DNA of 64,000 nucleotides from positions 117,632-181,631 of the forward strand of contig JBAZED010000001.1 of NCBI GenBank assembly GCA_041654095.1, given 5' to 3'. Positions 1,166 through 44,705 of the stretch are shown here, piece after piece (position 1 is the stretch's first letter; each line of letters begins with the position of its first letter). Made by a program: the position numbers and the translations under genes. Source of the stretch: Bacilli bacterium (lineage in GTDB: Bacteria; Bacillota_I; Bacilli_A; RFN20; CAG-826). The notes under the pieces are model-generated. The model saw only the letters and a program-made list of their open reading frames with translations. It had not been told where the DNA came from and searched no databases.

Positions 1166-1167
1166 AG

Positions 1168-1350
1168 ATGAAAGATAAACTTGTGAAATTCAATCGCAAA
1201 GCCCCTTATTACCGCATTAAGCGCGTTTTAATCGCCTTTTCGCTCTTGGCTCTCGTCACCGTCGCCATCTCCATTCCTCTCAGCCTCAAAATCGCTGCGA
1301 GTCAAGCTGAAGCCAATCAAGCCGAAGTCAGCGAAGTCGTCGACAAATAA
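1168..1350 (+). CDS. FtsL-like small bitopic division protein (60 aa)
   Basis: GGAG RBS overlapping rsmH stop; single TM helix (LIAFSLLALVTVAISIPL) then a short polar tail; the position between rsmH and ftsA is typical of ftsL. Confidence 0.5.
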   Translation: MKDKLVKFNRKAPYYRIKRVLIAFSLLALVTVAISIPLSLKIAASQAEANQAEVSEVVDK

Positions 1351-1386
1351 AAACGGTCATCATGGACGGACCTCCCTCCATCCGAG

Positions 1387-1414
1387 CTGCATCAACCGAT
1401 GCGGCTTTTTTATT
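1387..1414 (+). terminator. rho-independent terminator
   Basis: gctgcatc-aacc-gatgcggc stem (8 bp with one G.U) followed by TTTTTTATT. Confidence 0.6.
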
Positions 1415-1454
1415 ACACTAGTATTTTTCTAGGACTAATTTGTGCAAATTGCCT

Positions 1455-1483
1455 TTGCTACATTCAACCTTTATATATATAAT
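1455..1483 (+). promoter_or_regulatory. sigma-A-like promoter for ftsA-ftsZ
   Basis: TTGCTA - 17 nt - TATAAT, just upstream of the ATG at 1508. Confidence 0.45.
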
Positions 1484-1507
1484 ATAATTCAGAATAAATG
1501 CTCTAAC

Positions 1508-2725: not shown

Positions 2726-2736
2726 GGGGATATCTT

Positions 2737-3879
2737 ATGCAAGGATCTGATCTAGACAATTTCGAACCGATCGCCCGCATCGTCGTCATCGGCGTCGGCG
2801 GAGCCGGAAATAATGCTGTCAATCGCATGATTGATGAGGATTTAGGAGCCGTCGAATTTTACGTCGCCAATACCGATCGTCAAACGCTGGCGACATCAAA
2901 GTCGCGCAATCGCATCGTCCTCGGACCGTCCGTCACGGGCGGATTAGGCGCTGGCGGAGAGCCGAGCGTCGGTCGCGAAGCGGCCACAGCTTCCATCGAA
3001 GATATCCGCAAAGTCGTCAAAGGGGCCAACATGGTCTTCATCGCCGCCGGCATGGGCGGAGGAACGGGCACAGGAGCGGCTCCGATCGTCGCGCAAGTGG
3101 CACGCGAAGAAGGCGCCTTGACCGTCGCCATCGTCACGCGTCCCTTCACATTCGAAGGCAAGAGGCGCATCGCCAATTCCGTCGAAGGATTAAATGAACT
3201 CAAAGATGCGGTTGACGCCATCATCATCGTGTCCAATGATAAATTGCTGATGGTCAGCGGTACCCAGCCGATTTCCGAAGCTTTTGCCGAGTCGGACCGC
3301 GTCTTGGCGCAGTCGGTCAAGACCGTCACCGATTTGATTTTAATGCCGGCCGTCATCAACCTCGATTTCGCCGATGTCCGCAATACCTTGAAGGATTCCG
3401 GCATATCGCTGATCGGCTTTGGCTTAGGTCAAGGACCTAACAGAGCCCAAGAAGCCGCTCAAAATGCCATTAACTCGCCCCTTTTGGAAGCGAGCATCAA
3501 CGGCGCGAGACGGGCGATTTGCTCCGTCACTTGCGGGCCGAGCGTGAGCTTGTACGAAGCCCAAGAAGCCGTCGATTTGGTCATCGAAGCTGCGGGCAAT
3601 AACATCGACGTCAAATTCGGCGTCGCCATCAACAATCAATTGAGCGATCAGATTCTCGTCAGCGTCATCGCCAGCGATTTCACCGAGGAATTCGATTTCA
3701 CCAGCGTCCCCAACTATTCTCAGCAGCTGCGCTTTCAACGGCCGGATGCTGAAAAGAATAACGACGATGGCGAACCCAAACAAGCCAAAGAAGAAAGGGA
3801 AGAAGAAGTCGAGTCCAACGATCTCTCGAGCGAAGATTCGATCTTGCCGAGCTTCTTAAAAAACAAGCACATTGACTAA
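2737..3879 (+). CDS. ftsZ: Cell division GTPase FtsZ
   Basis: GGGTGTG tubulin signature (VIGVGGAGNNAVNRM, AAGMGGGTGTGAAP); acidic C-terminal tail; RBS GGGGGA. Confidence 0.95.
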   Translation: MQGSDLDNFEPIARIVVIGVGGAGNNAVNRMIDEDLGAVEFYVANTDRQTLATSKSRNRIVLGPSVTGGLGAGGEPSVGREAATASIEDIRKVVKGANMVFIAAGMGGGTGTGAAPIVAQVAREEGALTVAIVTRPFTFEGKRRIANSVEGLNELKDAVDAIIIVSNDKLLMVSGTQPISEAFAESDRVLAQSVKTVTDLILMPAVINLDFADVRNTLKDSGISLIGFGLGQGPNRAQEAAQNAINSPLLEASINGARRAICSVTCGPSVSLYEAQEAVDLVIEAAGNNIDVKFGVAINNQLSDQILVSVIASDFTEEFDFTSVPNYSQQLRFQRPDAEKNNDDGEPKQAKEEREEEVESNDLSSEDSILPSFLKNKHID

Positions 3880-5608
3880 AATTACCAATAGATTAAGTCT
3901 TCGAAAAGCTCTTATTTTTACGTTGGGTTTTTTCGTCCTATTAACATCTTGCGACGGTGGCAATTCGAGCGACACATCGTCATCTTCATCGGGTAATTCG
4001 GCATCGTCTTCCGGTCCGGATATCGAATATCAAGATTACTATAGCGATTATTATGATTCTATTGAATCATGGACAGATGGTGATAATCTTCGCGAACAGC
4101 TGCGAACTCTAGTTAACTACAATGTTAATCTAGTTGACTTTAATGCTAGTTCTAACATTTGGGCCGTCAACCAGCTCGCCGACGAAACCATCGATAATTA
4201 CGATCGCATCGATATCGTCTATGGAAATTATCAGCCTTTAAAAACGTTCACGGCGAGCGGTTCAAACGGCGGCTGGCAGCGCGAACATGCTTTTGCGCAA
4301 TCGCTTGGTGATTTCGATGTAGCGAGCGCCAGCAGAAATGCAAATGAAAGCTTGATCATGAGAAGCGATTTTCATAATCTGTTCGCCTCCGATGGCACTT
4401 TGAATGGTTCCCGAAACAATCTGAATCTCGGCGATGTCACTTCCGAGATGGGAGCGATCAGCAACCCCAAAGATTCGTTTGGAAACGAAACGGAATGCTA
4501 TCGAACCGATTTCGTTTTTGAGCCGCCGGATAAGGATAAACCGATGTTATCTCGCGCCATATTCTATATCGCGACCCGCTTTGCCGATCTCGATGTCGTC
4601 GAAGGAATATCCGCCGTCAGAAGCAAAACCCATGGTATGTTGAGCGACTTGTTGGAATGGTCGGAAAGCCCTGTCACCAGGCGCGAATACAAGCATAATA
4701 TCGGGGTTTATCATTTTCAGAACAATCGGAATCCGTATATCGACTATCCCGAACTCGTCGACTATGTTTTCGGAGATAAAAAAGATGAAGCTGGCGTTTT
4801 AAAAACATTAAGACCATCATATTATGATGTGGTTCTCGCCGGCGGCGAAGAAAACGCTGGCGACACGCATAATTTGACGATAAGAAATGTCAAATCCAAT
4901 TATATGGTAGGCGACCCGTTTTCAAAAGCTGACGATTTAAAAGTCTTTACGGTAGCCAACGATTTAACATTAAGCGATAATTTAGGAATAACCGCTTTTG
5001 AAACGACATATGCTGATTTTTACCATTTTGTTGATGGCGATCTCGGTAAGAAAACGGTATCCGTATCACATCAATCTTTCAATGTCTCTTATGAGATCGA
5101 AATCATCTCAAGCGCATCATCTTTAGCACTCTACAAGTATATATTGACCGCCGACGATGCATTCAAGGACAAAACAGCGCAGAGCACGCCTTATTCGATC
5201 ACTTTAGGCGGTTTGGCTTTTGACTTTTACATGAAGAGCGGATATGCATCGCAATTTCAAGCATCTGCCGGAACCGGTCGGCAGTTCGGAACAAAAGATT
5301 ATCCGATCGACAATATGTATCTCGAGACCAGCTCGCCGTTTAATGTCGATGATAAAACGCGAGTCAATGCCGTTTATATCGTCGCTTCGACGAACAAAAA
5401 CCCAGGGGCATCCCCAGCTATTAATGTGAGCATCGGCGAGTATTCTTTCCCGCAAAGAGCGCTGATCATCGGTCCGAGCGGAACGAATACGCTCTATAGC
5501 TTTGAAGTTCCAGAAGAAGGATCATACGAAGGAAAGGTGCGAATCGCCTTTAGCGGCTTCACCGATGGAGCGTTATATATCAAACAGTTTGCAATCAATG
5601 CCGTTTAG
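3872..5608 (+). CDS. Surface lipoprotein with Endonuclease-I (EndA/Vvn) family nuclease domain
   Basis: Lipobox LLTSC plus Ser-rich linker; motifs WQREHAFAQS and DFHNLFASDGTLNGSRNN match Endonuclease_1 catalytic motifs; its start overlaps the ftsZ stop by 8 nt. Confidence 0.72.
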   Translation: MTKITNRLSLRKALIFTLGFFVLLTSCDGGNSSDTSSSSSGNSASSSGPDIEYQDYYSDYYDSIESWTDGDNLREQLRTLVNYNVNLVDFNASSNIWAVNQLADETIDNYDRIDIVYGNYQPLKTFTASGSNGGWQREHAFAQSLGDFDVASASRNANESLIMRSDFHNLFASDGTLNGSRNNLNLGDVTSEMGAISNPKDSFGNETECYRTDFVFEPPDKDKPMLSRAIFYIATRFADLDVVEGISAVRSKTHGMLSDLLEWSESPVTRREYKHNIGVYHFQNNRNPYIDYPELVDYVFGDKKDEAGVLKTLRPSYYDVVLAGGEENAGDTHNLTIRNVKSNYMVGDPFSKADDLKVFTVANDLTLSDNLGITAFETTYADFYHFVDGDLGKKTVSVSHQSFNVSYEIEIISSASSLALYKYILTADDAFKDKTAQSTPYSITLGGLAFDFYMKSGYASQFQASAGTGRQFGTKDYPIDNMYLETSSPFNVDDKTRVNAVYIVASTNKNPGASPAINVSIGEYSFPQRALIIGPSGTNTLYSFEVPEEGSYEGKVRIAFSGFTDGALYIKQFAINAV

Positions 5609-5851: not shown

Positions 5852-8583
<2,732 letters not shown>

Positions 8584-8584
<1 letters not shown>

Positions 8585-9231
8585 TGAAATGGAAACCGAT
8601 AGCGTATTTTAAAGGCAAGAGCTTAAAAGAGATAGCTAAGGATTTCTTTTTCTCGTTCTTGTGGCTGCTTGTCGTTATTTTTGTCATTGATCTCGTCACG
8701 AAATGGGTTGTCGTCGCCAATTTGCACGAATATCAAGACGTCGTCGTCATCGACAGCTTCTTCTATCTGCGCCTCTCTTTTAACCAGGGAGCGGCCTTTG
8801 GCCTCGGCGATACCGGCGATGTCGAGTGGCGTATTTTGTTCATCGCCGTCTCGCTCGTCATCGGGACGGGCATGCTCATCTACTACATCAAAAAATATGC
8901 GTCGTTGAATATCATCATGAAAATCGCTCTGATCATGATGATCGCCGGCGCGTATGGCAATCTAATCGATCGCGCCTTCTATTGGCCTTCGACGGTCGGC
9001 TTCAGCGGCGTCATCGACTTCCTGTCGTTTGAATTCTGGGGCCGTCGCTTTGCGACGTTTAACGTCGCGGATATGTCGCTCGTCGTCGGCGTCATCGTCA
9101 TGCTCGCCGCCATTGTCGTCGACGACCTAAGACACGCCAAGAAGAAGAGCAAAGAAGACCTCTCGAGACCAGCGCCGGAATACCTCGCGGAAAAAGAAAT
9201 GAAAAATGGAAGCAAAGACGATCAATCATAA
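8584..9231 (+). CDS. lspA: Lipoprotein signal peptidase II
   Basis: ATG overlaps the ileS TGA; motifs NQGAAFG and FNVADMS; four TM segments; conserved ileS-lspA linkage. Confidence 0.9.
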
Positions 9232-10179: not shown

Positions 10180-12249
10180 CTAGCCGTTGAATTCGACAAG
10201 GCCGAAGACCATGCCCATAAAGCCAGTGCCTGATCCGATGTTGTAGTATACATTCATATAATCGCCGGTAAAATAATTAGCAGGAGCCCCGGGTTCATAT
10301 TTTGTTGCAATAGGAACCCCGCCTACACTAATGAGCCCTTGAGGATTAGGATTCAATAGTGCTGCTGGGCCATCTGACGATTGAAAGCGGGCGTATTCGG
10401 GGCCAAAGCCACTTGCTGAGGTCATAAATGCACCCTTGAAATCAAGAGCCACATTTTCATCGATTTGAATTTTTCCGTTAACCTTAGCAGATGTCGGTTC
10501 CGCGACACCTCCGTCTTTGATGAGACCGATCATGTTGAAATGGGCGATGGGATCAGGCTTTCCGGTGACGGTGATCATCTTCACAATTGATTTTGACCCA
10601 TAATATGGCAACAACTGTGTTCCAAGGGCAACCAACTGCGCGGCAGCACCTGTGGCGCTGACGAGCCTAAACCAGTTCTCGTCACCGGTGACATATGATT
10701 CTAATAATGAATTTTGGACAAGCGTTTGAGGTTGGTATCCGCCCTCTCCTGTCACTTCATCTGCATAGACGTGATCAGAGATGAGAACCGGACCACCTGC
10801 GCCGATAAATTCACAATCCTTAATGAGCAAGTTGGTAGTACCAAAGTTGTAAAGCATGCTGCTGAACGAGTCGTAACCGCGCGTTTTTTCGATCGTGGCA
10901 TTCGGACCGGAGAATTCAGTCAGGAAAATGGTGAAGCACTGTGTGGCGATGACATTATAAACAAGGGAGTCGACACTCAACGTCTTCGAAAAGATGGCAC
11001 CTCCTGATTTCACAGCTTCTTCGGTGCGGTTGGCATTGCCGACGACCGAGAGATTTTTCAGCTCGTAATCGCCTAAATCGTCACCGGTTTGGGCATTGCC
11101 AGCCTTGATGACTGTAGCGTGCGAAATGACTTTTCCCTCTTCTGTAGGACTCTCGACAGAATCCTTAGCTTCGCGAACGACAACAGGTAGCGATGAATAA
11201 TCAAGGTTGAAGTAATTGCCATTGATTACAAAATCTTCGCTAGGAAGAATATCTCGGTAATATACGCCGACGTCATCGCGTAGCGAACCGATGATGCGCG
11301 GGTAGTCGGCACCGTCAGTTGGGGCATCGCTGTCGCCTTCCATGTAGAAGAAACCATCCGGCAATTTGTCGCGTTCGATTTTGATGTCATTGTGGAAGAA
11401 GAGGCCGTCGATGTCGACTTGAGTAATGCCTTTGGCTGTGCGATAGCTATTCCATATATTGACATTGATGTTATCGAAATGGGACAAGTCATCTTGCTTG
11501 TAGACGTTATATCCATTCGCAATCGTAAATATAAAAGAAGTCTCAAATTTGGGTGCCGTTGCGTATTCATCGCCGGCCGGCCGGACGCTCAAACTGTAAG
11601 TCTTGCCGATCGCTGCTTCGGCGAAGTCGTAACTCGATGCGAATTCGTCGATGGCGACGGCAGCGTCGAGTTCAGCACCGGTCAAAGTGACCCATTCGTC
11701 CCCGCGTTTTTCCTTGACGACAGAACTGCTGTGATAAGCGGTGACATTCATCTCCTCACCTTCGGAGTCATAAGCGTAGATAGTCGGGAAGAAGATGAAG
11801 GGATTATCGTCGCCGACGAAGTAGCCTTGTTTGAGATCCTTAAACTCATTGCGCTTGTTCTCGGCACTTTTAGTGGCGATATTGGCTGTGTAGTTGGTGA
11901 CGAACTCAGGCGCGCCGATATTGGTGATCTCATCATATTGGACTATGGTGTAAGTCCAGACGATGCTCTCCGTCTCATAGGCGACGGTGATATCAAATTC
12001 GCCCAATTCGGAAGTATTGAGGGTAGTCGGCGTAAAAGTCAAATTCGCACCATTAATCGTTATCGTCTTATTCTCAAAAGTCGCGGTGACGCTGACTTCA
12101 TTGAGGTCGACGACGGTGTATTGAACGTATTCTTCTTGAAGTCCAGAGGCGACTTCGATGTCGAGCAAGTCGCCATATTCCTCGACGACCGGATCACATC
12201 CGGCGAGAGACATCATAACGAGCGGTAGAAATAGTAAACTCTTTTTCAT
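10180..12249 (-). CDS. Large surface lipoprotein (689 aa); possible Ig-like N-domain plus beta-helix-like body
   Basis: Lipobox LAGC|D; Asn/Thr/Gly-rich with repetitive beta-strand-like segments; last gene of the minus-strand ABC cluster; fold assignment is inference. Confidence 0.65.
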   Translation of the reverse strand: MKKSLLFLPLVMMSLAGCDPVVEEYGDLLDIEVASGLQEEYVQYTVVDLNEVSVTATFENKTITINGANLTFTPTTLNTSELGEFDITVAYETESIVWTYTIVQYDEITNIGAPEFVTNYTANIATKSAENKRNEFKDLKQGYFVGDDNPFIFFPTIYAYDSEGEEMNVTAYHSSSVVKEKRGDEWVTLTGAELDAAVAIDEFASSYDFAEAAIGKTYSLSVRPAGDEYATAPKFETSFIFTIANGYNVYKQDDLSHFDNINVNIWNSYRTAKGITQVDIDGLFFHNDIKIERDKLPDGFFYMEGDSDAPTDGADYPRIIGSLRDDVGVYYRDILPSEDFVINGNYFNLDYSSLPVVVREAKDSVESPTEEGKVISHATVIKAGNAQTGDDLGDYELKNLSVVGNANRTEEAVKSGGAIFSKTLSVDSLVYNVIATQCFTIFLTEFSGPNATIEKTRGYDSFSSMLYNFGTTNLLIKDCEFIGAGGPVLISDHVYADEVTGEGGYQPQTLVQNSLLESYVTGDENWFRLVSATGAAAQLVALGTQLLPYYGSKSIVKMITVTGKPDPIAHFNMIGLIKDGGVAEPTSAKVNGKIQIDENVALDFKGAFMTSASGFGPEYARFQSSDGPAALLNPNPQGLISVGGVPIATKYEPGAPANYFTGDYMNVYYNIGSGTGFMGMVFGLVEFNG

Positions 12250-12804: not shown

Positions 12805-14481
12805 TTAGTTTATCCGATCATAATAATACGCTTTTATTTTTTCGACGAAAAAGTAGATGGCCGCCCCGAAGAAGACCACGCCGATCAAGAGCAATTTCAA
12901 GAAGGCGAGGCTGAAACTCGTCTCAGGTATAAACTGTTCTTCGTTAAGAAAAGCAAAAGTGATAAAAGCGAATAAAAAAGCGGTCGCAAAGGCAAAGATC
13001 GTCGCTTTCGTCTCGTTGGGATTGTTAATTTGCTCGCCGACGGTCGCGTATTGCTCGTTCTGCGGATTCATCAAATCCATGAGGGCGCAGAAGAGGAGAT
13101 GGCCGACTTGAATGAAGGCCAAAGCAAAGCACAACAGAATAATATTGATGTGAATATAATGGACGTGCATGTTGAAAATTAAGAGCGAAACAGATAAGGA
13201 AGCAACCGATAAAACGATGTTTGGCAATAATTTGGCGATGAGCGGGAAGATGATTTTAACGGGTTTCGTCCGCTTCATGTAAGCGGTGCGCCCTTCCCTA
13301 GAATAGAGCGTGGCGATATAGCTATTTGAAGCCATGAGGGGCAACATGATAATCAAGACATTGAAGGCTTGGACCATGAATTCACCAACGAGGTACAAAT
13401 CCATGGAAGCAAAAATCCGGTTGATGAGCAAGACGACCAAAGGGATAGCGATGTAGGTGGCGATAAAATTGTAGGTGAATTCGCCGGAGCGGAAGAGCAG
13501 CTTTAACTCCTTGAGAGTAAAAGAGATGAAAGGCGGTAAGCGGCGGTTCATAAGCGCCTTGACTTTAAATTTCTTCTCATATTCGAAACTGGCAGCCGTC
13601 ATCTTGATGAAGATGAGGCGCGATAAGAAGTAGATGGACATAAAGAGGGTCGCCAAAATGCCGATGAGGCTGAAGAAGATGAGCCAGACATCGAGGTTGG
13701 CGTATGAGTAGCGCATCGCCGCATCATATTTTCCGACGACCATGACGACGACGTAATAGATGGGGGAGAAGACCTCTTGAAAAAACATCGTCACGTCCGA
13801 GAGCATTATTTTGAGCGGAACCCAGTAAAGGAGGACATTTATTTCGTTAGGTATCAATAAAATCAAGCGGGCGAGCAGGTAGACGCAACCCGCCAAAACA
13901 GCGATGAAAACGGCGATTTTGACGATGCGGTGGCGGTTTAAAAAGCGGAAAATAAAGAGCCCGGGAACGGATAGGACGACGCCGATGACGACCGGGATCA
14001 TCGAGACGAAGAAAAAGGCGATGAAGACCCAGATGTAGAAAAACCAGTTGACCGGAGACATCACGCCATAAGCGATGAAGATGGGCAGAGTAAAAGTCAC
14101 GTTCTTGTAAATTTCGTAGATGTAAAAGACGATGATTTTCGATAAGAAGATGCGGTTGGCGGAGATGGGATAAGTCACCAGGACTTGATTGTCTTCGGCC
14201 ATGTAGAGCGACTTGATGAGCTCCAGCGTGCAAGTGACGATTGAAATACCGAGTATGATCGTCATCAGCATCGTCATGACCGAGGTGGGAATGAAAGGAG
14301 AATTGTGGAAGATCTTCAAAAATGAAGAGAGGAATAAGATGCCAAACGCGATGGCAAAGACGAGCAGAAACCGCAAGATGAAAAAGACGATTTTGCGAAT
14401 TAGCTGCGGCCGATCTCTGATAAACCCTAAGTCGAGTTTATCCTTGAGCTGCATTATGACAAGCGTTTTGATATCTTTCAT
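12805..14481 (-). CDS. Polytopic membrane protein, probable ABC-2-type exporter permease (558 aa)
   Basis: At least 10 hydrophobic helices; lies immediately downstream (4 nt) of an ABC ATPase gene; no recognisable enzymatic motif. Confidence 0.65.
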   Translation of the reverse strand: MKDIKTLVIMQLKDKLDLGFIRDRPQLIRKIVFFILRFLLVFAIAFGILFLSSFLKIFHNSPFIPTSVMTMLMTIILGISIVTCTLELIKSLYMAEDNQVLVTYPISANRIFLSKIIVFYIYEIYKNVTFTLPIFIAYGVMSPVNWFFYIWVFIAFFFVSMIPVVIGVVLSVPGLFIFRFLNRHRIVKIAVFIAVLAGCVYLLARLILLIPNEINVLLYWVPLKIMLSDVTMFFQEVFSPIYYVVVMVVGKYDAAMRYSYANLDVWLIFFSLIGILATLFMSIYFLSRLIFIKMTAASFEYEKKFKVKALMNRRLPPFISFTLKELKLLFRSGEFTYNFIATYIAIPLVVLLINRIFASMDLYLVGEFMVQAFNVLIIMLPLMASNSYIATLYSREGRTAYMKRTKPVKIIFPLIAKLLPNIVLSVASLSVSLLIFNMHVHYIHINIILLCFALAFIQVGHLLFCALMDLMNPQNEQYATVGEQINNPNETKATIFAFATAFLFAFITFAFLNEEQFIPETSFSLAFLKLLLIGVVFFGAAIYFFVEKIKAYYYDRIN

Positions 14482-14485
14482 CGCT

Positions 14486-16705
14486 TTAGCCTTGCTTTGA
14501 TTCCTCGTTTACACTCGGAGTTGGTTCATCGTCGATAACGGCCGTCATCAAATAGTATTCCTCGAGCGTTCCTTGCTTGTGAACATCGTCAATCGTCATC
14601 GGTTCGTGGAGATGGCCTTTTTTAATGACGGCGATGCGCTGGCAGAGATTTTCGACGACATCGATGATGTGGCTCGAGAACATGACGATGTTGCCTTTGG
14701 CGGCGTGTTGCCGCATGCACTCTTTGACTTGGTAGATGCTGTCGGGGTCAAGGCCGGTCAGAGGTTCGTCGAGCAACCAGAGTTTGGGCTCGTGGATTAA
14801 CGCGGCGATGATTGTGACTTTCTGCTTCATGCCGTGCGAAAAAGTCTTGATTTGGCTGTCGAAAGAGTCTTCGAGATGGAAGAGGCTGACATAGTAGGGA
14901 ATCCGCTCTTGCCGCTCGTCATAAGTGACGCCGTAAATGTCGGCGATGTAATTGACGTACTCGCGAGCCGTCAACTTTTCGTACAAGGCATAGTGGTCGG
15001 GGACATAACCGATGAGGCGCTTGGCCATAACGGGTTGTTTTTCGACGTCATAACCGCAGATCGAGATCGAACCTTCGGTGATCGTCTGAATGCCGACGAT
15101 CGATTTGATGGTCGTCGACTTGCCGGCGCCGTTGGGTCCGAGGAAGCCGAAGATCTCTCCGCCGAAGACATTCAACGAAATATCCTTGACGGCGAAATCC
15201 TTGTTTTTTCCGTAGCGTTTGGAGAAGTTTTTCAGCTCCAACTTCACTCCTGTATTCAGTTCCATGGGTTCTTCGAGCCCCCTTCCGTTTAACGATGCTA
15301 ATAAAGCTATTTGATCGAGGCGCATTTTCTTTTGGCGAACGCGGAGGTCACCGAGCGAATCAGCTATGCTGAAACCGACGCTGTAGACGAACCACATCGC
15401 AAAGGAAACGCCGACGTAGACGAGTAAGAAGAGCGCTTGGTAGACCGGGTGAAAAGTAAATGATAAATCGCCGATCATAAAGCTGGAGGAGATGTTGAAG
15501 ATACTCTCGGCCCAGACCCCTAATTTGTCGACGATGAAGTCGCTGTTGATAAAGAAGAAGTCGACGGTCGCGTAATTGCTGAACCAGACATTGAGAATCA
15601 TAACCAATATAAAATAAGCCGAAAAGGCGATGAGCGAATAGTACATCTGCTTCATCTTCGGACGTGGGAATAAGCGTAAAGCGACAAGGAGCAAGGGCAT
15701 GAAAAAGGCCAGGGCGTGGTTGTACCAGAATTGGATGATGACCCAACTCGTCAAGTTCGTGGTTTCCGCATAGTTGGGCATCAGCATCGCCATCAGCGCA
15801 CCGAAAACGTTGATGAAATAAGTGAAGTAAAACAGCTTATCCAGTTTAAATATCAAGCAGATCGGAATGATGTACATGGCGGTATTGCAGAGGTGGATGG
15901 GCCATGTCCACGGCTCCAGGAAATTCCCATAGTAGAAAACGCGCGAAAAGGTGATCATCGTCGCGACGCTCAGATAGACCATGGCAAAGCGGATGATTTC
16001 ATCGTCCTTTTTCTTCAGCGCGAAATAGATGATGAAAGGGATGGTGATCGTCGCGTAGATGAAGAGGCGGTGGACGAAGGAGATATCGATTACTTCATAG
16101 CGGGCGTTCGCGCTTCCGAACATAATCTGCGGGCCGTAGATGGGAAGGCTGGCGAGAAAGATGGGGATGATTGCCAAGAGCAAATTGATGATCTCTGCCT
16201 TAGGCAGTTTGAAGGAGGCGTCCTCGCGCCAGACGATGAACAAACCATAGGCGATCAATCCGCTTTCGAGGGCGAACATAATCGTCGGAAGCGATAAGCC
16301 GAGAGTTCCGGCCGCGTTTCCGATTAGTTGCAGATAGACGCTGTAATATGAAAATCCAAGATAGAAAAGAAATCCGGGCGTGAAGACGAACTTGATGAGG
16401 TTAGCGAGCGTCTTGACTTTGAAAAAAGGATAGAGCATGAGCAAGACGGCTAAAGCAAGTTCAATCCAGATTCCGAAATATGCAAAGAAAGTGAGGGCCG
16501 GAGCAAAAGGGCCTCCAGCTAGGCTGATGATGCTGACAGCCTGATCGGAATACGAAAAATAGCGAACGGCGAAGACGGCAGCTAAAATGATCGCATAAAT
16601 TTTCGCGTATCTTTTCGTCTTGCGTGCGCGCGTTAACCAAAAAGTCAACAAAGCCCCGATGAGGGCTGCGCCAAGGGCGATGAGATGCGACAGGTAATGT
16701 GTCAA
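14486..16705 (-). CDS. ABC transporter ATP-binding protein fused to a large N-terminal polytopic membrane domain (739 aa)
   Basis: C-terminal ~250 aa carry Walker A GPNGAGKST, signature SHGMKQK, Walker B LWLLDEPLTGLD and an H-loop; N-terminal ~470 aa are membrane-embedded with a WPIHLCN motif reminiscent of the YwaF/TIGR02206 (TMEM164-like) family; TTG start with AGGA RBS. Confidence 0.85.
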   Translation of the reverse strand: MTHYLSHLIALGAALIGALLTFWLTRARKTKRYAKIYAIILAAVFAVRYFSYSDQAVSIISLAGGPFAPALTFFAYFGIWIELALAVLLMLYPFFKVKTLANLIKFVFTPGFLFYLGFSYYSVYLQLIGNAAGTLGLSLPTIMFALESGLIAYGLFIVWREDASFKLPKAEIINLLLAIIPIFLASLPIYGPQIMFGSANARYEVIDISFVHRLFIYATITIPFIIYFALKKKDDEIIRFAMVYLSVATMITFSRVFYYGNFLEPWTWPIHLCNTAMYIIPICLIFKLDKLFYFTYFINVFGALMAMLMPNYAETTNLTSWVIIQFWYNHALAFFMPLLLVALRLFPRPKMKQMYYSLIAFSAYFILVMILNVWFSNYATVDFFFINSDFIVDKLGVWAESIFNISSSFMIGDLSFTFHPVYQALFLLVYVGVSFAMWFVYSVGFSIADSLGDLRVRQKKMRLDQIALLASLNGRGLEEPMELNTGVKLELKNFSKRYGKNKDFAVKDISLNVFGGEIFGFLGPNGAGKSTTIKSIVGIQTITEGSISICGYDVEKQPVMAKRLIGYVPDHYALYEKLTAREYVNYIADIYGVTYDERQERIPYYVSLFHLEDSFDSQIKTFSHGMKQKVTIIAALIHEPKLWLLDEPLTGLDPDSIYQVKECMRQHAAKGNIVMFSSHIIDVVENLCQRIAVIKKGHLHEPMTIDDVHKQGTLEEYYLMTAVIDDEPTPSVNEESKQG

Positions 16706-23250: not shown

Positions 23251-23327
23251 GTCCTCTTAGCTCAGCTGGATAGAGCAACGGCCTTCTAAGCCGTAGGTCA
23301 GGCGTTCGAATCGCCTAGAGGATGCCA
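23251..23327 (+). tRNA. tRNA-Arg (anticodon UCU)
   Basis: Cloverleaf folds by eye: acceptor GUCCUCU/AGAGGAU (G1.U72 wobble), D-arm GCUC-AGCUGGAUA-GAGC, anticodon stem ACGGC/GCCGU with loop CUUCUAA, T-arm AGGCG-UUCGAAU-CGCCU, discriminator G, encoded CCA. Confidence 0.88.
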
Positions 23328-23338
23328 TTAAAAAATAG

Positions 23339-23367
23339 GGATCACAATCGTGGTCCTTTTATTTTTT
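23339..23367 (+). terminator. rho-independent terminator after the tRNA
   Basis: ggatcac-aatc-gtggtcc stem followed by TTTTATTTTTT. Confidence 0.65.
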
Positions 23368-23426
23368 GTTCAAAAAAATGAAGCCTTCGGTTATGATTAG
23401 CAAGTGAAGCCAGCCTTTAGTAATAA

Positions 23427-25349
23427 ATGCCAAACAACAAGACGCTCACCAAATTATTATTCACCAGTTTAACGATTGTAGGAATCGTTTCCTTCAGCGT
23501 TCTCTTCAACCCATCGAGCGCGCAAGTCGATGGCGAAGGAAGCGGCGAAGTAAACTGCGAATACTATTTTGCGGAGAGCAATAATTACACATCGATACAC
23601 ACTATCGTCGGTAACCTGAATGATGGTATTACCGGGGTTTCATACAAGACTTGGGGCACGGTTACAAAGTACTACCTCGATTCAAACGGCTATCAGAATT
23701 TCTACATACAAAGCACCGATCAAAACGGCAATTTTGCCGGCATGATGATCTACCGGAGCAGCATCGAAGTGGCGGAGGGAAACGTCTTAACCGTCGAAGG
23801 AATCGCCTCGCTATACAATAATTTGCCGGAATTCGTCAACCCGGCGAGGATCGACGTCGATTATGAAGTCAACTCCTCATCGGTCGAAACCTATGTGACG
23901 GATGAATCGTTTTGGCAAAACGGAACGAACCCTTCCTCGTCGCAATTCATCGAGGGCGAAAGCCTCGGAATCTTGAAAATCGCTTTAAACGACGTTGTTT
24001 TAACGTATAATTCCTCTGGAAATGCGACTGTCGTTTTTGCGGGGATGACGAGCGTTCCGCTCTATTATGGCTATCTATCGCAGACAGCGGCGATCGACAG
24101 CTACCTTTATCCGCTAAGCGGATCGACCGTCGATGTCGTTGGCTATCTTCACTGCTATGCCGACGGATATACCTATATGATGCAGTGTTTGATCCGCGGT
24201 GCCGGTGATGTCATCTCCGAAAGCAGCGGCTCTTCCCTGACGCTCAATTCAACCAATTATTACGAGATTGGTACGTATTCGACAGGAAACTACGCTCGCA
24301 CTAATGTAGGCGGTTTTAATTTCGAGCATTATCGAGTCATAAAGCCAAGTTATGGCAATCCGGAATTCATGATTTTGCTACCTTATTTCAACGCTTACGG
24401 AGACGGAACCGCAGCGGGCGCTTTCTATAATGTGTCGGCGATAAACGACATCGAAAGCATCGCTCTTACTTATCGCACGGAGGCGGATTTCGGAATAAAG
24501 CCAACTTTGTCTTATGGCGAAGATATATCGTGCGGCATCTCGATAGAACTTGACCTATCTACCATTTCAGAGACGGCGACGTTGGAAGTGGCAAATGCGA
24601 ATTTTTTCAAAATCGAGACCACCGGAAGCAAATTGTATCTGGAAAGCATCGAAATCGACTATGCCAACGCCGGTCCGGCTGATGAATTCGCCTTCCTCAG
24701 CGCCGGTCAAAACCTCAATCGAATTAATCCGATTGTCAGCACCGGTTCCCTCTACGACGGAAAAAGTGTCCAAGTTCCTTCTTCAATCGCCAAAACGGGT
24801 AGCTATTACGCCGTCCAAAATACGGCGACTTACACCTATTATTCCTATGATTATATCGCTCTTAATCCGGTTTATGCCGACCAAGCCGCGTATACGGCGC
24901 CTGAAGATGTCGCCGCCTATTTCACGACTTTTGGCACTTGGCCGGCGAACTATGTTAACAAGGCGAATTACAATGCTGCGCACGATCTTTTCGGTGATGA
25001 TACGCGCTGCGTCTCGACTTATTCGTGGGATGGCGGATACGCGGTAGCCGTTCCTTATCAAGTGGGCGGCGGCGATCTCCCTCTTTATCATGAATGTGAC
25101 ATCGCTCTCGACTCCTCTTATTCGGGTACCAACCGAGGGGTGGGGCGCGTCATCTGTTGGGAGTATGGCTTTGATTCTTCAAAGGGAGCTGCGAACTACG
25201 ATTCCGCGCCGGTCTGCATCTACACCGATGATCACTATGCGACCTTCCAAGAATATCTGAATGCCGGCTCGTTCGGGACGCGGTTCAACGCCGAGATGGC
25301 GCGCACCGATCACGTCTGGGGAGCGGCGACGACGCTCCTGCCCTCATAA
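23427..25349 (+). CDS. Secreted/surface 640-aa protein with C-terminal barnase/RNase Sa-family (microbial guanyl-specific RNase) domain
   Basis: N-terminal signal peptide (LLFTSLTIVGIVSFSVLF..SSA|Q) with no lipobox; the C-terminal ~110 aa (nt ~24900-25260) align to barnase/RNase Sa: PANYVNK helix, YHECDI (general-base Glu), NRGVGRVIC (Arg pair), YTDDHYATF (catalytic His). Confidence 0.75.
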   Translation: MPNNKTLTKLLFTSLTIVGIVSFSVLFNPSSAQVDGEGSGEVNCEYYFAESNNYTSIHTIVGNLNDGITGVSYKTWGTVTKYYLDSNGYQNFYIQSTDQNGNFAGMMIYRSSIEVAEGNVLTVEGIASLYNNLPEFVNPARIDVDYEVNSSSVETYVTDESFWQNGTNPSSSQFIEGESLGILKIALNDVVLTYNSSGNATVVFAGMTSVPLYYGYLSQTAAIDSYLYPLSGSTVDVVGYLHCYADGYTYMMQCLIRGAGDVISESSGSSLTLNSTNYYEIGTYSTGNYARTNVGGFNFEHYRVIKPSYGNPEFMILLPYFNAYGDGTAAGAFYNVSAINDIESIALTYRTEADFGIKPTLSYGEDISCGISIELDLSTISETATLEVANANFFKIETTGSKLYLESIEIDYANAGPADEFAFLSAGQNLNRINPIVSTGSLYDGKSVQVPSSIAKTGSYYAVQNTATYTYYSYDYIALNPVYADQAAYTAPEDVAAYFTTFGTWPANYVNKANYNAAHDLFGDDTRCVSTYSWDGGYAVAVPYQVGGGDLPLYHECDIALDSSYSGTNRGVGRVICWEYGFDSSKGAANYDSAPVCIYTDDHYATFQEYLNAGSFGTRFNAEMARTDHVWGAATTLLPS

Positions 25350-25396: not shown

Positions 25397-26323
25397 ATGG
25401 ATTCTCTGAAGACCTTAATTGAAAAAAAGCAGTACGCTTTGGTTTTGGAGTTGACTAAGGACAGCCTCGATGTCGATTCGATCTCGTATCGCATCGCCGC
25501 CTATCTCGGCCTCGGTAAACTCGAAGACGCCCTGCTCTTAATCGAAGAGCATAAAAGCGATTTTAAAGATGGTATTTTCAATATCATGAAAGTCCATTTT
25601 GAAGTCTTGTTCACCCTTCAAAAATACGATCGAGCCTACCAAGAATTGAAGTATTACCAAAACCTCCCTTATATTTCTCAAGAGGTCGAAGAATATTTAA
25701 ATGGCGCGGATTTGATGATTCGCCACCACGAGCGGAAGCAGAGATTGGACAAAAAACTGAGCAAAGAAGAGATAAATCGCATTTTAAATAGTGAAAACGA
25801 CGATGTCGTCCTGCTCGCCGCCCTCAACGACATCCGCGAGTATAAGATGAGCGAATTCTACCAGGTCATCATCCATTTTTTGAAGAGGCAAGACGCCCAT
25901 TCCCACGTCCGGACTTACGCTTTATTTCTCCTGGTCTCCGATGGTTATGACAAAACGGTGTCTTTTGATAAAAATGACAAGAATTACAAGGTCGTACCCA
26001 AAGATTTGGAACCGCCCTTCATGAATTCGCAATACGATGCGATCTTGCGCCGCCTCGAAACCATCGCCAAAGATCCTTCGGTGAGCGAAGTAGCAAATTC
26101 GCTTCTCAATGAGCTGATCATTATTTTATATCCCGATAACATCTTTTCATCGCCGAGCGAACTGCTCATCGGCGCCCTTCTCGTCTTGGCTTATGAACAC
26201 CTGCAAATCGCGCCGGATATCGCCGATCTGGCCTCCAACTTGAATATATCGATTAACGATTTGATGGTCTTCGTGCAGAAGCTCCAAAAAAATTTGGAGA
26301 GCAATCCGCCGATTCAAGCTTAA
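25397..26323 (+). CDS. Helical TPR-like cytosolic protein (308 aa), possibly YsoA-like conserved neighbour of tig
   Basis: All-helical and repeat-like; no signal peptide; located immediately upstream of tig, as the TPR protein ysoA is in Bacillus. Confidence 0.55.
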   Translation: MDSLKTLIEKKQYALVLELTKDSLDVDSISYRIAAYLGLGKLEDALLLIEEHKSDFKDGIFNIMKVHFEVLFTLQKYDRAYQELKYYQNLPYISQEVEEYLNGADLMIRHHERKQRLDKKLSKEEINRILNSENDDVVLLAALNDIREYKMSEFYQVIIHFLKRQDAHSHVRTYALFLLVSDGYDKTVSFDKNDKNYKVVPKDLEPPFMNSQYDAILRRLETIAKDPSVSEVANSLLNELIIILYPDNIFSSPSELLIGALLVLAYEHLQIAPDIADLASNLNISINDLMVFVQKLQKNLESNPPIQA

Positions 26324-42080: not shown

Positions 42081-44705
42081 ATGCGTCGACTAATTGCTTA
42101 TATAACCCTCGCTATCTCTTCGCTGATCGCCATCGGCGTCGGCATAAATCCCATCTTATCAAAAGGCATTAGCAACCTCGATTACCGCGACGGTCGCCAA
42201 TTCGTCTATCAGCTGTTCGACCGCGATGACAAAGAAGCCGACATCGAGGCTGAAGAAGCCGCTTCGGACGTCGCTAAGACGATGGATGAGCGACTCAAAA
42301 TATGGGGCGTCTCAAACTATAGCGTCGAAGTCGAAGGCACGGATATCATCCGCGTCTCTTTGACCGCCAAAAATGATACTGAATACGACTACCTCGAAAA
42401 ATATCTCGGCTTCAGCGGCCAGAATTTCTCAATTTCGACCAAGGACGAGTCGGTCCGCTTGACGCACGACGAAGTCTTTGCTGATAGCAAAGCCTACATC
42501 GTCTATGAAGGATACGCTCCTTACGTCATCATCCCGCTCAGCGATCCGACGAGGTTTAAAGCTTTAGTCGATGCTGCCCAAGCCCTCTTAGATGAAGAGG
42601 CGGGTGGCGAAGACACCGGCGAGACCGTGCCTGATTATCGCCGGCTGCAAGCTCAAGGTGAAGATGATACATCCAAACAGCCCAATATCTTCTTGTGGGC
42701 CAATTGGGAAGAAGGCGAAGACTACGAAAAAGCCCAATCCGATGAAAAGGTGGCTTATAAGATCATCGCCCAATTTCTCTCGAGCAATATCTATTATGAA
42801 GATAGCAAAGTCGCTGAAAGCGAAATCAAGTATTTGAGCGGTTTTGCCGATTCGGAAGGCAATTACGATACATCGCGAATTCGCCAAGCCAACAACCTCG
42901 CTAACTACGTTAAAAATCTGTTCAATGCCGAGGCCTACGATTATGAAGTGACGAAGATCTTCACGACCCCGATCGATGCTGGCGTCGAGAGCGTATTAAC
43001 ATACGGAATGTCGGTTAGCTTATCATTTAGCAAAACGATGATCGCCACGATCGTCGTCGCCGTTGTCGTGGCCCTCGTCCTCGCTTTTTTCTTCCGCCTT
43101 GGTTCGATTTCCGTCATCACCTCTTCAGCGATTACTTTCTTTGCAACCCTCGCCATTTTCGTGGCCTTTCGAGCTGAATTCAACGTCGCCGCGCTGGTCG
43201 CCTTGCTTTTAGTCGCTGCCGCCAGTCTATTGGCGGGAATTCTCCACCTGACCAAATTTAAGGAAGAAGTATATCGCGGCCGCAATTTCAAAAAGGCTAA
43301 TTTGGAAGCCGCTAAAGCGATGACCGTCCCGGCCATCGATATCGCCGTCATCATGGTGGCGGTCGGCGTCTTGACTTATATCATCGGTGGAACCTTGGTC
43401 GCTTCTTTTGGCACGATGCTCGTCATCGGCGGTATCGTCAGCCTCGCCGTCAACCTCATCGTCCTGCGCCTTTTGATGTGGCTGGTGACGAACACGACCA
43501 ATCTCCAAGGCGTCAATAAAGCTTTTAATATCGAAGATAAAAACGTTCCTAATTTGTTGAAAGAAGAAAAGCAGACTTATTTCGGTCCTTATCAAGACCG
43601 CGATTTTACCAAGCGCGCCAAACCGGTCGCGATCGGTGCCGGCGCCTTCTCGCTCGTCGCCGTGATCATGATGATTGTTTTCGGGTCATTAAACAACACA
43701 ATCTACAACGTTAAAGCCGTCGCTGATGAATCATCGCGCGCTTACATCACGATCGTCGGCGAAAGTCCGGTCGTCGATGGCGTCTCCTATGTCGAAAACG
43801 AGATTTTGAAAAACGTCTACGTGGATGGCAAACCTCTTTCATATGGGTCAATCGATCACGAAACTCGCGAGGATCTGGATGCCGAAACCACGATTACGAC
43901 CTATTATAACTATTATGTAGTTAATTTGAACAAGACTTATACCGGAGAGGAAGATGCTTATTTCTTGGATGGCGACGTTCAAACCATCTCTGGCAGTTTG
44001 GAAGTCGTCCTCGACACTTTTGTCGACACGATTGAAAGCGGCGATGGTCAAGCGCGCATCAAAACATCGGAAAACATCGTTCTCCAACCGTCGACGACGC
44101 ACATCGCTCTCGGAGCATTGGCAGGAGTGGCAGTCGCCGTCTTCTACCTCGCCTTCCGCTACCGCGTCTCGCGGGCCTTAGCCGCCTTTGGAGTCAGCGC
44201 CTTATCTTCATTTGCGACCTTAGGTTTCTTTGTCGTCACCCGCTTGGCCACGACGCCGATCGTCGCTTTAGTTGTTCCGGCCATCGCTTTATTCACCTTA
44301 TTTGCCTCGCTGTACTTCTTGACTCGTGAACGTGACTTGCTAAGAGAAGATCGCTCGAAGGAAAAGACGGTGGAAATTCGCAAAGACATCATGATCAAAG
44401 CCACAGCTCTAGCAGCTGGACCGCTCTTCATATTTGGCATTATTATGTCTTACTTCGCCATCAATTACTTCGGTTTTGGACCCGCCTCATTCGCCGCCTT
44501 GTTCGGCGGTATGCTGCTCGGCGTCGCCTTGAGTGTCTTGCTGATTGCCACGCTCCTTGGCCCGACCGCTCTATTCTTAGAGACACTCATCAGCAAAATC
44601 GTGGCCCGCATTCGCCTACCGCGTCCGCGCCTCAGCAAAAAGAAAATCGTCAAGTCAACTTCCAGCGAACCCGAAGAGACGGTCTTCATCGGCATCAACG
44701 ACTGA
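42081..44705 (+). CDS. secDF: Fused protein-export membrane protein SecDF
   Basis: 874 aa; two 6-TM bundles each preceded by a large extracytoplasmic domain; GGAGGA RBS. Confidence 0.88.
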   Translation: MRRLIAYITLAISSLIAIGVGINPILSKGISNLDYRDGRQFVYQLFDRDDKEADIEAEEAASDVAKTMDERLKIWGVSNYSVEVEGTDIIRVSLTAKNDTEYDYLEKYLGFSGQNFSISTKDESVRLTHDEVFADSKAYIVYEGYAPYVIIPLSDPTRFKALVDAAQALLDEEAGGEDTGETVPDYRRLQAQGEDDTSKQPNIFLWANWEEGEDYEKAQSDEKVAYKIIAQFLSSNIYYEDSKVAESEIKYLSGFADSEGNYDTSRIRQANNLANYVKNLFNAEAYDYEVTKIFTTPIDAGVESVLTYGMSVSLSFSKTMIATIVVAVVVALVLAFFFRLGSISVITSSAITFFATLAIFVAFRAEFNVAALVALLLVAAASLLAGILHLTKFKEEVYRGRNFKKANLEAAKAMTVPAIDIAVIMVAVGVLTYIIGGTLVASFGTMLVIGGIVSLAVNLIVLRLLMWLVTNTTNLQGVNKAFNIEDKNVPNLLKEEKQTYFGPYQDRDFTKRAKPVAIGAGAFSLVAVIMMIVFGSLNNTIYNVKAVADESSRAYITIVGESPVVDGVSYVENEILKNVYVDGKPLSYGSIDHETREDLDAETTITTYYNYYVVNLNKTYTGEEDAYFLDGDVQTISGSLEVVLDTFVDTIESGDGQARIKTSENIVLQPSTTHIALGALAGVAVAVFYLAFRYRVSRALAAFGVSALSSFATLGFFVVTRLATTPIVALVVPAIALFTLFASLYFLTRERDLLREDRSKEKTVEIRKDIMIKATALAAGPLFIFGIIMSYFAINYFGFGPASFAALFGGMLLGVALSVLLIATLLGPTALFLETLISKIVARIRLPRPRLSKKKIVKSTSSEPEETVFIGIND

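Follow-up and report, generated by a model that had tools for sequence, protein, structure and literature searches.

A predicted exported barnase-type ribonuclease joined to OB-fold and CBM-like domains, lacking a linked inhibitor gene, in an uncultured Bacilli lineage

Barnase-type RNases are textbook enzymes: small single-domain secreted proteins restrained by barstar. The window (the whole 64,000-nt stretch of Bacilli DNA analysed here) encoded a 640-aa protein with a domain of this kind at its C-terminus; it was 100% identical to NCBI MAG protein WC344_00550, labelled 'hypothetical protein', and its gene lay between tRNA-Arg and the gene for a 308-aa helical protein. The locus raised the question of whether this gene encoded one half of a toxin–immunity pair, with the 308-aa protein as the other half, or an exported enzyme operating with no linked inhibitor. 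The preferred reading, given a probability of about 0.6, was an exported RNase scavenging RNA, in which a signal or anchor segment is followed by an OB-fold domain, an OB-like domain, a jelly roll of CBM-like type, a linker with a hairpin, and the barnase-type domain (Table 1).

Table 1. Coordinates of the RNase gene, its predicted domains and the neighbouring features in the window
Feature	Position	Strand	Basis or remark
tRNA-Arg (anticodon TCT)	23251..23327	+	ARAGORN; conserved landmark following uvrC
Terminator-like hairpin and T-run	23337..23368	+	Consensus scan and sequence; pattern match only
Promoter-like site TTCAAA-17-TATGAT	23369..23397	+	Consensus scan, 9/12 matches; putative, pattern only
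RNase gene, whole	23427..25349	+	640 aa; end coordinate counts stop codon; ORF list
Export segment, residues 1-32	23427..23522	+	Lys-containing n-region, then about 20-25 uncharged/hydrophobic residues
OB-fold beta-barrel, nucleic-acid-binding type, residues about 66-150	23622..23876	+	
Second small alpha/beta domain, residues about 155-266	23889..24224	+	b1-b2-b3-helix-b4-b5, OB-like topology
Jelly-roll beta-sandwich, CBM-like, residues about 267-415	24225..24671	+	
Linker and beta-hairpin, residues about 416-472	24672..24842	+	AF2; runs into catalytic domain
Divergent barnase/RNase Sa-type catalytic domain, residues 473-640	24843..25346	+	Candidate residues K512, E556, R570, R574, H603
308-aa helical protein gene	25397..26323	+	Downstream of RNase; backbone neighbour of tig

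Catalytic domain and its family

The catalytic domain displayed a barnase-type alpha+beta fold, in which N-terminal helices pack against an antiparallel sheet; compared to barnase, it was extended by extra helices at the N-terminus and by a conserved tail of about 30 aa at the C-terminus, with R619 and W631 invariant in this tail, and about 13 aa were inserted ahead of the His strand. Alignment by hhalign with barnase, binase, and RNase Sa gave a probability of 93.8% (E 1.7e-7), and its register matched E556, R570, R574, and H603 with E73, R83, R87, and H102 of barnase, respectively. These four residues were invariant in 27 homologues, down to 35% identity, and the barnase/RNase Sa-type domain with a Glu/Arg/Arg/His set claimed by the original prediction was thereby borne out.

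Identity to barnase was 19-24%, and the profile check suggested with that prediction gave a divided outcome: the PF00545 gathering score (cut-off 24) was reached neither by the full protein (20.5 bits) nor by the C-domain (22.3 bits), with the match spanning only profile positions 47-96 of 98, but PF00545 matched 21/21 family C-domains (best E 5.3e-6), in line with the hhalign result. In PDB sequence searches, neither the full protein, nor its full-length profile, nor the C-domain by itself gave a significant barnase match; the C-domain profile gave E values of 0.08-0.6 to about 26 barnase/binase chains. An isoprene-synthase match in the PDB (E 0.004) was set aside as spurious.

The protein was acidic (pI about 4.2; 4.25 for the catalytic domain), and AF2 confidence was low at and beyond the His strand, with pLDDT about 35-58 when the domain was modelled in isolation and 39-77 within the full-length protein. 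Taken with the sub-threshold Pfam score and the large insertions and extensions that barnase does not have, the acidity (barnase and binase are basic) and the low model confidence around the catalytic His would suit a dead or repurposed barnase fold that only binds RNA or a ligand within a surface adhesin. However, RNase Sa is acidic as well (pI about 3.5) and yet active within this superfamily, and invariance of the four catalytic residues in register with barnase would be unexpected for a pseudo-enzyme; a dead fold is very improbable. The active enzyme would most likely cut single-stranded RNA through the acid-base chemistry, independent of metal ions, that is typical of the N1/T1/barnase superfamily, via 2',3'-cyclic phosphate intermediates, with E556 serving as the general base, H603 as the general acid, and R570, R574, and K512 stabilising the transition state. 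Residues 533-537, the putative base-recognition loop, were SWDGG here versus the family consensus SRTDG, and this loop was variable in the family.

The RNase family is sizeable and so far without database annotation: clustering at 50% identity gave at least 343 clusters that conserve the whole 171-aa catalytic unit, at least 27 full-length homologues of the 640-aa protein were found, and the catalytic-domain family covered 67 species-level genomes of uncultured Bacilli, with many members coming from gut, rumen, and faecal MAGs (lineage statements follow database record titles). Tandem paralogues of the RNase were present in some genomes (loci L052, L055, L056, and L061); in the window's own clade, the gene was single-copy and conserved.

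Export segment and accessory domains

A hydropathy and motif survey of the N-termini of the 27 homologues revealed a K/R n-region plus a hydrophobic stretch of 18-25 aa in complete family members and no lipobox, and AF2 modelled residues 4-27 of the window protein as a helix. The anticipated N-terminal export signal thus held up across the family, and residues 1-32 would either act as a Sec signal peptide or stay uncleaved as an N-terminal membrane anchor.

Behind the OB-fold barrel, residues about 155-266 were modelled by AF2 with pLDDT about 88-94, and the secondary-structure topology of this model suggested an OB-like fold. The jelly roll was the beginning of a widely conserved C-terminal module. 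In the following region, AF2 confidence was low for linker residues 419-427, the hairpin at residues 446-471 was conserved, and R432, P435, G445, and P451 were kept among the homologues. Pfam scans of the protein and all 27 homologues gave only PF00545, weak PF01336 matches, and, in two members, Big_3; some family members thus carried surface domains of Big_3 or Ig-like type. Accessory domains common to the RNase and either the Endonuclease I lipoprotein or an 874-aa ORF of the window were also considered, and BLASTP found no similarity. The OB-fold domain(s) would probably hold the RNA substrate, and the jelly roll would probably bind a polymer or a cell-surface ligand; the CBM-like domain might just as well point to attachment to the surface of another cell.

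Gene context and the toxin–immunity question

The tRNA-Arg (TCT) gene also followed uvrC in L001, L003, L007, and L008. On pattern matching only, the hairpin and T-run behind it may end the tRNA-Arg transcription unit, and the promoter-like site was located about 30 bp 5' of the RNase ATG. The original prediction regarded the 3' flank of this tRNA as an insertion hotspot, which was true of the flank and not of the RNase: the segment immediately 3' of tRNA-Arg contained differing cargo among relatives, but within its clade the RNase was always a fixed gene abutting the 308-aa gene. It had native GC content and diverged in parallel with the backbone genes (L001, L003, L077, and L078); no att-like repeat or duplicated tRNA 3' end was found at the locus, and no integrase was found among the annotated neighbours. 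On the missing duplication of the tRNA 3' end, the missing att-like repeat, and the native GC, a tRNA-integrated genomic island was rejected; the fixed position beside the 308-aa gene, the GC content, and the lack of att repeat and integrase therefore made the RNase gene a clade-level resident rather than mobile cargo.

Two roles had been offered for the 308-aa protein, namely a conserved neighbour of tig or a non-canonical immunity factor. Its homologues fell into 63 clusters. A homologue was located together with the RNase in L001, L003, L077, and L078, and directly upstream of tig-lon-engB with no RNase gene in L007, L008, and L009; where RNase homologues occurred in other contexts (L005 and L006), unrelated proteins followed and the 308-aa gene was absent. 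The 308-aa gene is a conserved tig neighbour outside the RNase system, as the first of the two roles had it, and the immunity role was rejected on comparative gene context. The protein gave weak TPR/PPR-like signals only, at residues about 22-115: the SRP72 TPR at E about 0.005 and designed PPR proteins at E about 1e-6 (summed repeats), with Pfam SRP_TPR_like and ANAPC3 each appearing as weak signals in 4/29 members of its family. PADLOC gave no match for it.

The original prediction likened the architecture of the RNase to that of polymorphic or contact-dependent toxins. Under such a reading, the protein would be an antibacterial polymorphic-type toxin, diffusible or contact-dependent, with the 308-aa TPR-like protein as its non-canonical immunity factor. 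Precedents are available: Tox-Barnase occurs at the C-termini of polymorphic toxins (PMC3482391), and Sec-exported BetaH-BECR RNase toxins are found in Gram-positives, some of them with TPR-like immunity proteins (PMC9424270, PMC12582261). At the locus itself, the consensus scan found no terminator-like site after the RNase stop codon and before the start of the 308-aa gene, so the two genes may be co-transcribed. In addition, the L005 homologue was flanked by an S8 peptidase (a 1126-aa S8 plus Big_2 multidomain protein) on one side and an unannotated 328-aa gene on the other.

The comparative data contradict this reading. Besides the independence of the 308-aa family from the RNase, residues 40-440 searched alone gave 31 matches, of which 29 had the same RNase C-domain and two were truncated fragments; the N-terminal region is never joined to an alternative C-terminus among these matches, and the comparison of related loci thus revealed none of the C-terminal domain swapping looked for. 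No LXG/WXG, RHS, FilH, HINT, PT-TG, or similar pre-toxin/secretion domain was found by Pfam in the protein and the 27 homologues, and the N-terminal domains resembled OB and CBM folds instead. Clustering of neighbours at BLASTP sensitivity gave no family recurring in more than seven of 71 loci, and those seven loci were the close syntenic clade. The S8 peptidase of L005 was the single one near an RNase gene among the 71 loci, and the window contained no S8-like ORF; the other 'S8-like' matches were RNase-family ORFs, picked up probably via shared Ig-like (Big_2-type) domains. Membership in S8-PTS/ABP was rejected on these counts, and membership in anti-phage defence was rejected with no PADLOC matches. 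The toxin reading with 308-aa immunity is largely refuted and very unlikely.

The statement that no barstar lay nearby was confirmed within the searches made: the best phmmer match in the window had E 1.7 (with an approximate, insensitive barstar query), the Pfam scan of the window's small genes found no barstar, and barstar was not recurrent in 45 flanking small ORFs (judged from the 25 most frequent of 65 Pfam families, where a lone match could hide). The accompanying suggestion that an exported enzyme needs no adjacent inhibitor fits the barnase and binase genes, which likewise have no inhibitor gene adjacent (PMC5021464). Self-protection may be achieved by export before or during folding, or by an inhibitor encoded elsewhere in the genome, rather than by the adjacent gene.

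Biological role and comparison with known systems

In the window, mraZ-rsmH-ftsA-ftsZ formed a compact cluster lacking genes for cell-wall synthesis, and a lipoprotein Endonuclease I was encoded at 3872-5608, with lspA close by; the organism probably belongs to a reduced, wall-less, Mollicutes-like Bacilli lineage. DNA and RNA support the growth of wall-less Izemoplasmatales, which use several extracellular nucleases for this (PMC10470597), and phosphate starvation induces binase and balifase (PMC5021464). From this context, the most likely role of the RNase would be to break down RNA from the environment and so supply nucleotide and phosphate salvage, with the enzyme either released or kept at the cell surface by its N-terminal hydrophobic segment.

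Two further roles were weighed against scavenging. The RNase might be an immunity-less effector or cytotoxin aimed at host cells or competing microbes, its CBM-like domain targeting foreign surfaces. The gut, rumen, and faecal origin of many family members would suit such a function, as would the CBM-like and, in some members, Big_3/Ig-like domains typical of external-surface binders, and the tandem paralogues, which suggest diversification; secreted N1/T1 RNases are reported to be cytotoxic to eukaryotic cells, and analogy could be drawn with the cytotoxicity reported for binase and fungal ribotoxins. Nevertheless, the protein showed no domain for translocation or entry, the N-terminal domain matches included no receptor-binding or translocation domain, the window organism and its closest relatives were labelled as uncultured Bacilli/Bacillota MAGs with no host given, and the gene was single-copy and conserved in the window's clade; an effector role is unlikely. 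More speculatively, and with rather little weight attached, the protein could be the founding example of an unannotated family (the 343 or more clusters above) of immunity-less, surface-displayed barnase-type RNases of reduced or wall-less Bacilli, in which the catalytic-domain extensions plus the OB/CBM-like domains would confer a new specificity or a built-in self-protection or activation replacing barstar; such enzymes might target particular RNAs, extracellular or foreign, when microbes interact with each other or with a host, rather than scavenge in bulk.

The analysis delineated an uncharacterised branch with an enlarged catalytic domain, fusion to OB-fold and CBM-like domains, and no linked inhibitor gene, a branch missed by current Pfam thresholds and carried at NCBI as 'hypothetical'. 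If scavenging is true, the means by which Mollicutes-like bacteria forage for nucleic acids would gain an RNA-specific arm, and many metagenome-assembled genomes would gain better annotation. The branch also offers a clean natural test of how cells tolerate a barnase-type enzyme without adjacent barstar. It adds no new mechanistic category, and its value is incremental.

Comparison was made with six sets of known systems. Tox-Barnase/Imm-Barstar (PMC3482391) shared with the window RNase a barnase-clade BECR-fold RNase placed C-terminally in a large exported protein, but the latter had neither variable cassettes nor trafficking or pre-toxin domains, and neither barstar nor a recurrent immunity gene lay next to it. 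S8-PTS/ABP (S8 protease plus BetaH-toxin plus immunity; PMC9424270, PMC12582261) resembled it in Sec signal, beta-rich N-terminus, C-terminal BECR-fold RNase, and Gram-positive lineages, but the window locus had no S8 or immunity gene and its C-terminus was not polymorphic; BetaH is about 120 aa with a seven-stranded sheet around a C-terminal helix, and the folds predicted for the N-terminus of the window RNase were OB-like and CBM-like. Among extracellular nucleases with N-terminal OB-like domains, the EEP-domain protein 9sf8/9sf9 had an OB-like barrel ahead of a secreted nuclease domain, but its match covered about 55 aa at a non-significant E of 0.16, and its catalytic domain was of endonuclease/exonuclease/phosphatase type rather than barnase-type. 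With the surface and extracellular nucleases of Mollicutes/Izemoplasmatales (such as MnuA and those of Hujiaoplasma; PMC11729948, PMC10470597), the window RNase shared its proposed role, salvage from external nucleic acids in reduced wall-less relatives of Bacilli; their catalytic folds are unrelated and they are usually lipoproteins, while the window RNase was barnase-type with no lipobox, so the resemblance is functional only and implies no homology.

The classical enzymes made up the other two sets: (i) barnase, binase, and balifase, the Bacillus extracellular guanyl-preferring RNases of PF00545, are single-domain, about 110 aa, and basic, while the window RNase is acidic and 640 aa in length with OB-fold and CBM-like domains added; and (ii) among RNase Sa, Sa2, and Sa3 of Streptomyces, RNase Sa is a one-domain protein of 96 aa with no accessory domains, and it is missing the first barnase helix that the window RNase retained (PANYVNK region). 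The window RNase is a new architecture on a known kind of enzyme.

The barnase-type ribonuclease and its family

The 640-codon RNase ORF, starting 99 bp past tRNA-Arg(TCT), encoded a product identical to NCBI WC344_00550 (uncultured 'Bacilli bacterium' MAG), which is recorded as 'hypothetical protein' and lacks a precomputed Pfam domain. The original prediction of a C-terminal barnase/RNase Sa-type domain was confirmed: its four catalytic motifs were found (see table for all coordinates), and three sensitive tests agreed with one another: (i) PF00545 (Ribonuclease) matched 21/21 family C-domains (best E 5.3e-6); (ii) profile-profile alignment (hhalign) of the C-domain with barnase, binase, and RNase Sa (reference sequences partly corroborated by barnase segments from PDB profile matches) reached a probability of 93.8% (E 1.7e-7, 90 columns); and (iii) barnase was the sole confident Foldseek match of the predicted structure (E 0.012, prob 0.99; runner-up E 0.7). 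The structure-prediction alignments were shallow (21-27 sequences), and model confidence was lowest at and beyond the His strand of the C-domain. The hhalign pairs (RNase/barnase) were E556/E73, R570/R83, R574/R87, H603/H102, and K512/K27; E556, R570, R574, and H603 were invariant across 27 homologues having an overall identity of just 35-60%. The window protein taken singly stayed below the 24-bit gathering score of PF00545 (20.5 bits for the whole RNase and 22.3 bits for the C-domain), matching just the C-terminal half of the model. Searches of PDB sequences (phmmer, hmmsearch) produced no significant match, whether the query was the full RNase, a full-length profile, or the C-domain alone; with a profile of the C-domain, about 26 barnase and binase chains aligned along two collinear stretches, at E 0.08-0.6 only. 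SWDGG of the window RNase (family consensus: SRTDG) aligned with the barnase guanine-recognition loop SNRE; it is a lineage-specific change, and base preference could be altered.

The preceding ~500 residues, originally described as Tyr/Gly/Asn-rich, were resolved into folded domains in the full-length AF2 model (pLDDT 80.6). The RNase N terminus had two Lys followed by ~25 uncharged, mainly hydrophobic residues, with residues 4-27 modeled by AF2 as a single long helix, and complete family members shared this design (2-6 K/R plus 18-25 hydrophobic residues, with no lipobox); this is predicted to be a Sec signal peptide or else a membrane anchor that stays uncleaved.

A search of 1.84 billion representatives with the 171-residue C-terminal profile retrieved 343 clusters (at 50% identity), of which 187 had E ≤ 1e-30; almost every cluster spanned the whole profile, and thus the barnase core, extra N-terminal helices, and ~30-residue C-terminal tail behaved as a single conserved unit. 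Proteins bearing this domain were 135 to 1890 aa long, most commonly 400-480 aa (sandwich, linker, and RNase domain). Among GTDB species representatives, 67 genomes had an RNase relative; the carriers were uncultured MAGs of Bacilli, Bacillota, Erysipelotrichaceae, Coprobacillus, Acholeplasmatales, or Scatosoma type, many being gut, rumen, or faecal. Contigs L050, L051, L054, L069, and L073 came from MAGs labeled Gammaproteobacteria, Treponema, Alistipes finegoldii, or Lachnospiraceae; they were probably mis-binned, since the distribution was otherwise strictly Bacilli. Tandem family pairs had unlike N-terminal architectures (e.g., 591 + 820 aa), which suggests local duplication and diversification. 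The RNase domain was internal in a minority, including the 1890-aa P0240, with several hundred further residues of unassigned nature past it.

Features of the window, the RNase, and homologue loci in other genomes (L numbers)
Sequence	Position	Feature
Window	23-3879 (+)	mraZ (partial), rsmH, 60-aa membrane ORF, ftsA, ftsZ
Window	3872-5608 (+)	Endonuclease I protein, 578 aa
Window	8488-9231	lspA
Window	10180-12249 (-)	689-aa ORF
Window	12805-16705	Two ABC-type genes
Window	23251-23327	tRNA-Arg(TCT)
Window	tRNA-Arg to RNase interval	No gene
Window	23427-25349 (+)	RNase
Window	25023-25037	SWDGG (residues 533-537)
Window	25397-26323 (+)	308-aa gene
Window	42081-44705 (+)	874-aa ORF
RNase (AF2)	~72-146	Beta-barrel
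RNase (AF2)	~160-265	Second b1-b2-b3-helix-b4-b5 unit
RNase (AF2)	~269-412	Beta-sandwich
RNase (AF2)	between beta-sandwich and hairpin	Low-confidence linker
RNase (AF2)	446-471	Conserved hairpin
RNase	473-640	C-domain
RNase	506-512, 554-559, 569-577, 599-607	Catalytic motifs
L001	6866-9826	3' of uvrC-tRNA-Arg: MazG-like, Schlafen-like helicase, methyltransferase genes
L003, also L077	8329-9945 (L003)	3' of uvrC-tRNA-Arg: HTH, glucosamine-6-phosphate isomerase (NagB) genes
L078	1-3860	3' of uvrC-tRNA-Arg: type I restriction HsdR, YgjP-like, small ORFs
L007	6824-7911	3' of uvrC-tRNA-Arg: UDG, HTH genes; no RNase
L005	1251-7822	S8 peptidase (minus strand), RNase homologue, 328-aa gene
L052	2127-6471	Tandem pair
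L055	1160-3882	Tandem pair
L056	5083-9557	Tandem pair
L061	2-3019	Tandem pair
L063	5821-9825	Internal RNase domain, 1334 aa
L033	5737-7830	Internal RNase domain, 697 aa

The 308-aa gene and the tRNA-Arg flank

The gene order RNase, 308-310-aa gene, tig, lon, and engB was retained in L001, L003, L077, and L078 (RNase 56-60% identical), while L005 and L006 (RNase homologues of 44-51% identity) had unrelated neighborhoods, in which the genes after the RNase homologue had no similarity to the 308-aa protein. The 308-aa family (63 clusters) was wider than the full-length RNase family; its distant members (35-36% identity) lay immediately upstream of tig-lon-engB with the RNase gene absent, and L008 displayed the window backbone minus RNase: mutS2-uvrC-tRNA-Arg-[306 aa]-tig-lon-engB. 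The 308-aa gene thus partners tig in the backbone, not RNase, as originally judged more likely, and the alternative that it encodes a non-canonical immunity factor was not supported. Its 'TPR-like' nature was weakly indicated. The homologue P0033 bears the source name 'FlaD/FlaE family flagellar protein', and PF04659 weakly matched 14/29 family members (best E 4e-5; window protein under the cut-off); this label is probably spurious, since the tig-upstream position was conserved in non-flagellate-looking genomes. DUF3196 faintly matched two members.

The stretch from uvrC-tRNA-Arg to RNase varied in content among the window, L001, L003, L077, and L078. In this lineage the segment 3' of uvrC-tRNA-Arg is a real variable hotspot, with partly defense-like genes, upstream of a fixed RNase or 308-aa gene. 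The proposed hotspot was partly supported, RNase itself not being mobile cargo: its GC content equaled that of its flanks, neither an att-like repeat nor a duplicated tRNA 3' end was found, and none of the annotated neighboring genes encoded an integrase. RNase is a stably inherited resident at the distal edge of this spot: the ancestor of the window's clade acquired it once, or the others lost it.

Toxin-like role versus proposed extracellular RNA digestion

The polymorphic or contact-dependent toxin architecture invoked in the original prediction was not borne out. A search with RNase residues 40-440 alone yielded 31 proteins, 29 having the same C-domain and two being truncated fragments, and thus the C terminus was not a swappable cassette. 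When ORFs within 3 kb of RNase at 71 loci were clustered (BLASTP sensitivity), no family occurred in more than seven loci, and these seven formed a close syntenic clade. No trafficking or pre-toxin domain was detected, and PADLOC gave no match. In line with the original observation, no barstar was found within the 64-kb window by an insensitive phmmer query and a Pfam scan of small genes, and barstar was not among the recurrent families of 45 flanking small ORFs (the 25 most frequent of 65 Pfam families). Two memberships were rejected: (i) Tox-Barnase/Imm-Barstar polymorphic toxins, whose swappable C terminus, pre-toxin domains, and linked immunity gene were absent, and (ii) S8-PTS/ABP systems. 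The latter encode a Sec signal-BetaH-BECR RNase protein alongside an S8 protease and its immunity partner gene (PMC9424270, PMC12582261); they were considered because of an S8 neighbor in L005 (1/71 loci) and rejected for lack of such a peptidase gene in the window. This lone reminiscent locus carried a multidomain 1126-aa S8 peptidase with Big_2 and an unannotated 328-aa protein with no similarity to the 308-aa protein.

Extracellular RNA digestion for nucleotide and phosphate salvage is the favored role (probability about 0.6), based on the compact division cluster, a second nuclease, and literature precedents. The division cluster was devoid of peptidoglycan genes (no mur, pbp, ftsW, or mraY between its members), and its mraZ-rsmH-small ORF-ftsA-ftsZ order is the compact Mollicutes-type arrangement; this points to an organism that lacks a wall or is strongly reduced and uses the standard genetic code. 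Directly past ftsZ lay a protein whose Endonuclease I domain (PF04231, E 1.4e-25) was accompanied by a lipoprotein signal (…FFVLLTS|C…, LTSC lipobox) and whose C-terminal ~280 residues had no Pfam match, with lspA nearby; it is the second predicted surface nuclease of the window. Counting RNase, two or more nucleases appear to be displayed by the cell. The barnase and binase genes have no adjacent inhibitor, the balifase-YrdF operon being called unique, and phosphate starvation induces binase and balifase (PMC5021464); DNA and RNA support growth of the wall-less Izemoplasmatales, which use several extracellular nucleases (PMC10470597). The RNase would be exported and either released or membrane-tethered; its putative OB-fold domain(s) may hold RNA, the barnase-type domain would cut it by acid-base catalysis through Glu and His, the transition state being stabilized by Arg and Lys, and the putative jelly-roll domain may bind a polymer or surface ligand. 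Self-protection would come from export or an unlinked inhibitor. Pfam yielded nothing at E ≤ 1e-5 for the large 874-aa and 689-aa ORFs elsewhere in the window; the 689-aa ORF adjoins a 153-aa ORF (weak Big_2) and the two ABC-type genes.

Comparison with barnase and RNase Sa

No description of this RNase architecture was found in the literature searched. Among barnase relatives the family represents a large branch that is unannotated, carries predicted fusions to OB and CBM domains, and has no barstar linked to it, which is mildly surprising to a specialist and useful for annotation, not paradigm-changing. The window RNase fell short of the curated Pfam threshold, and its size, charge, domain architecture, and conserved extensions set it apart from barnase and RNase Sa, but it had the predicted fold and aligned catalytic residues of the superfamily and would work in the same way.
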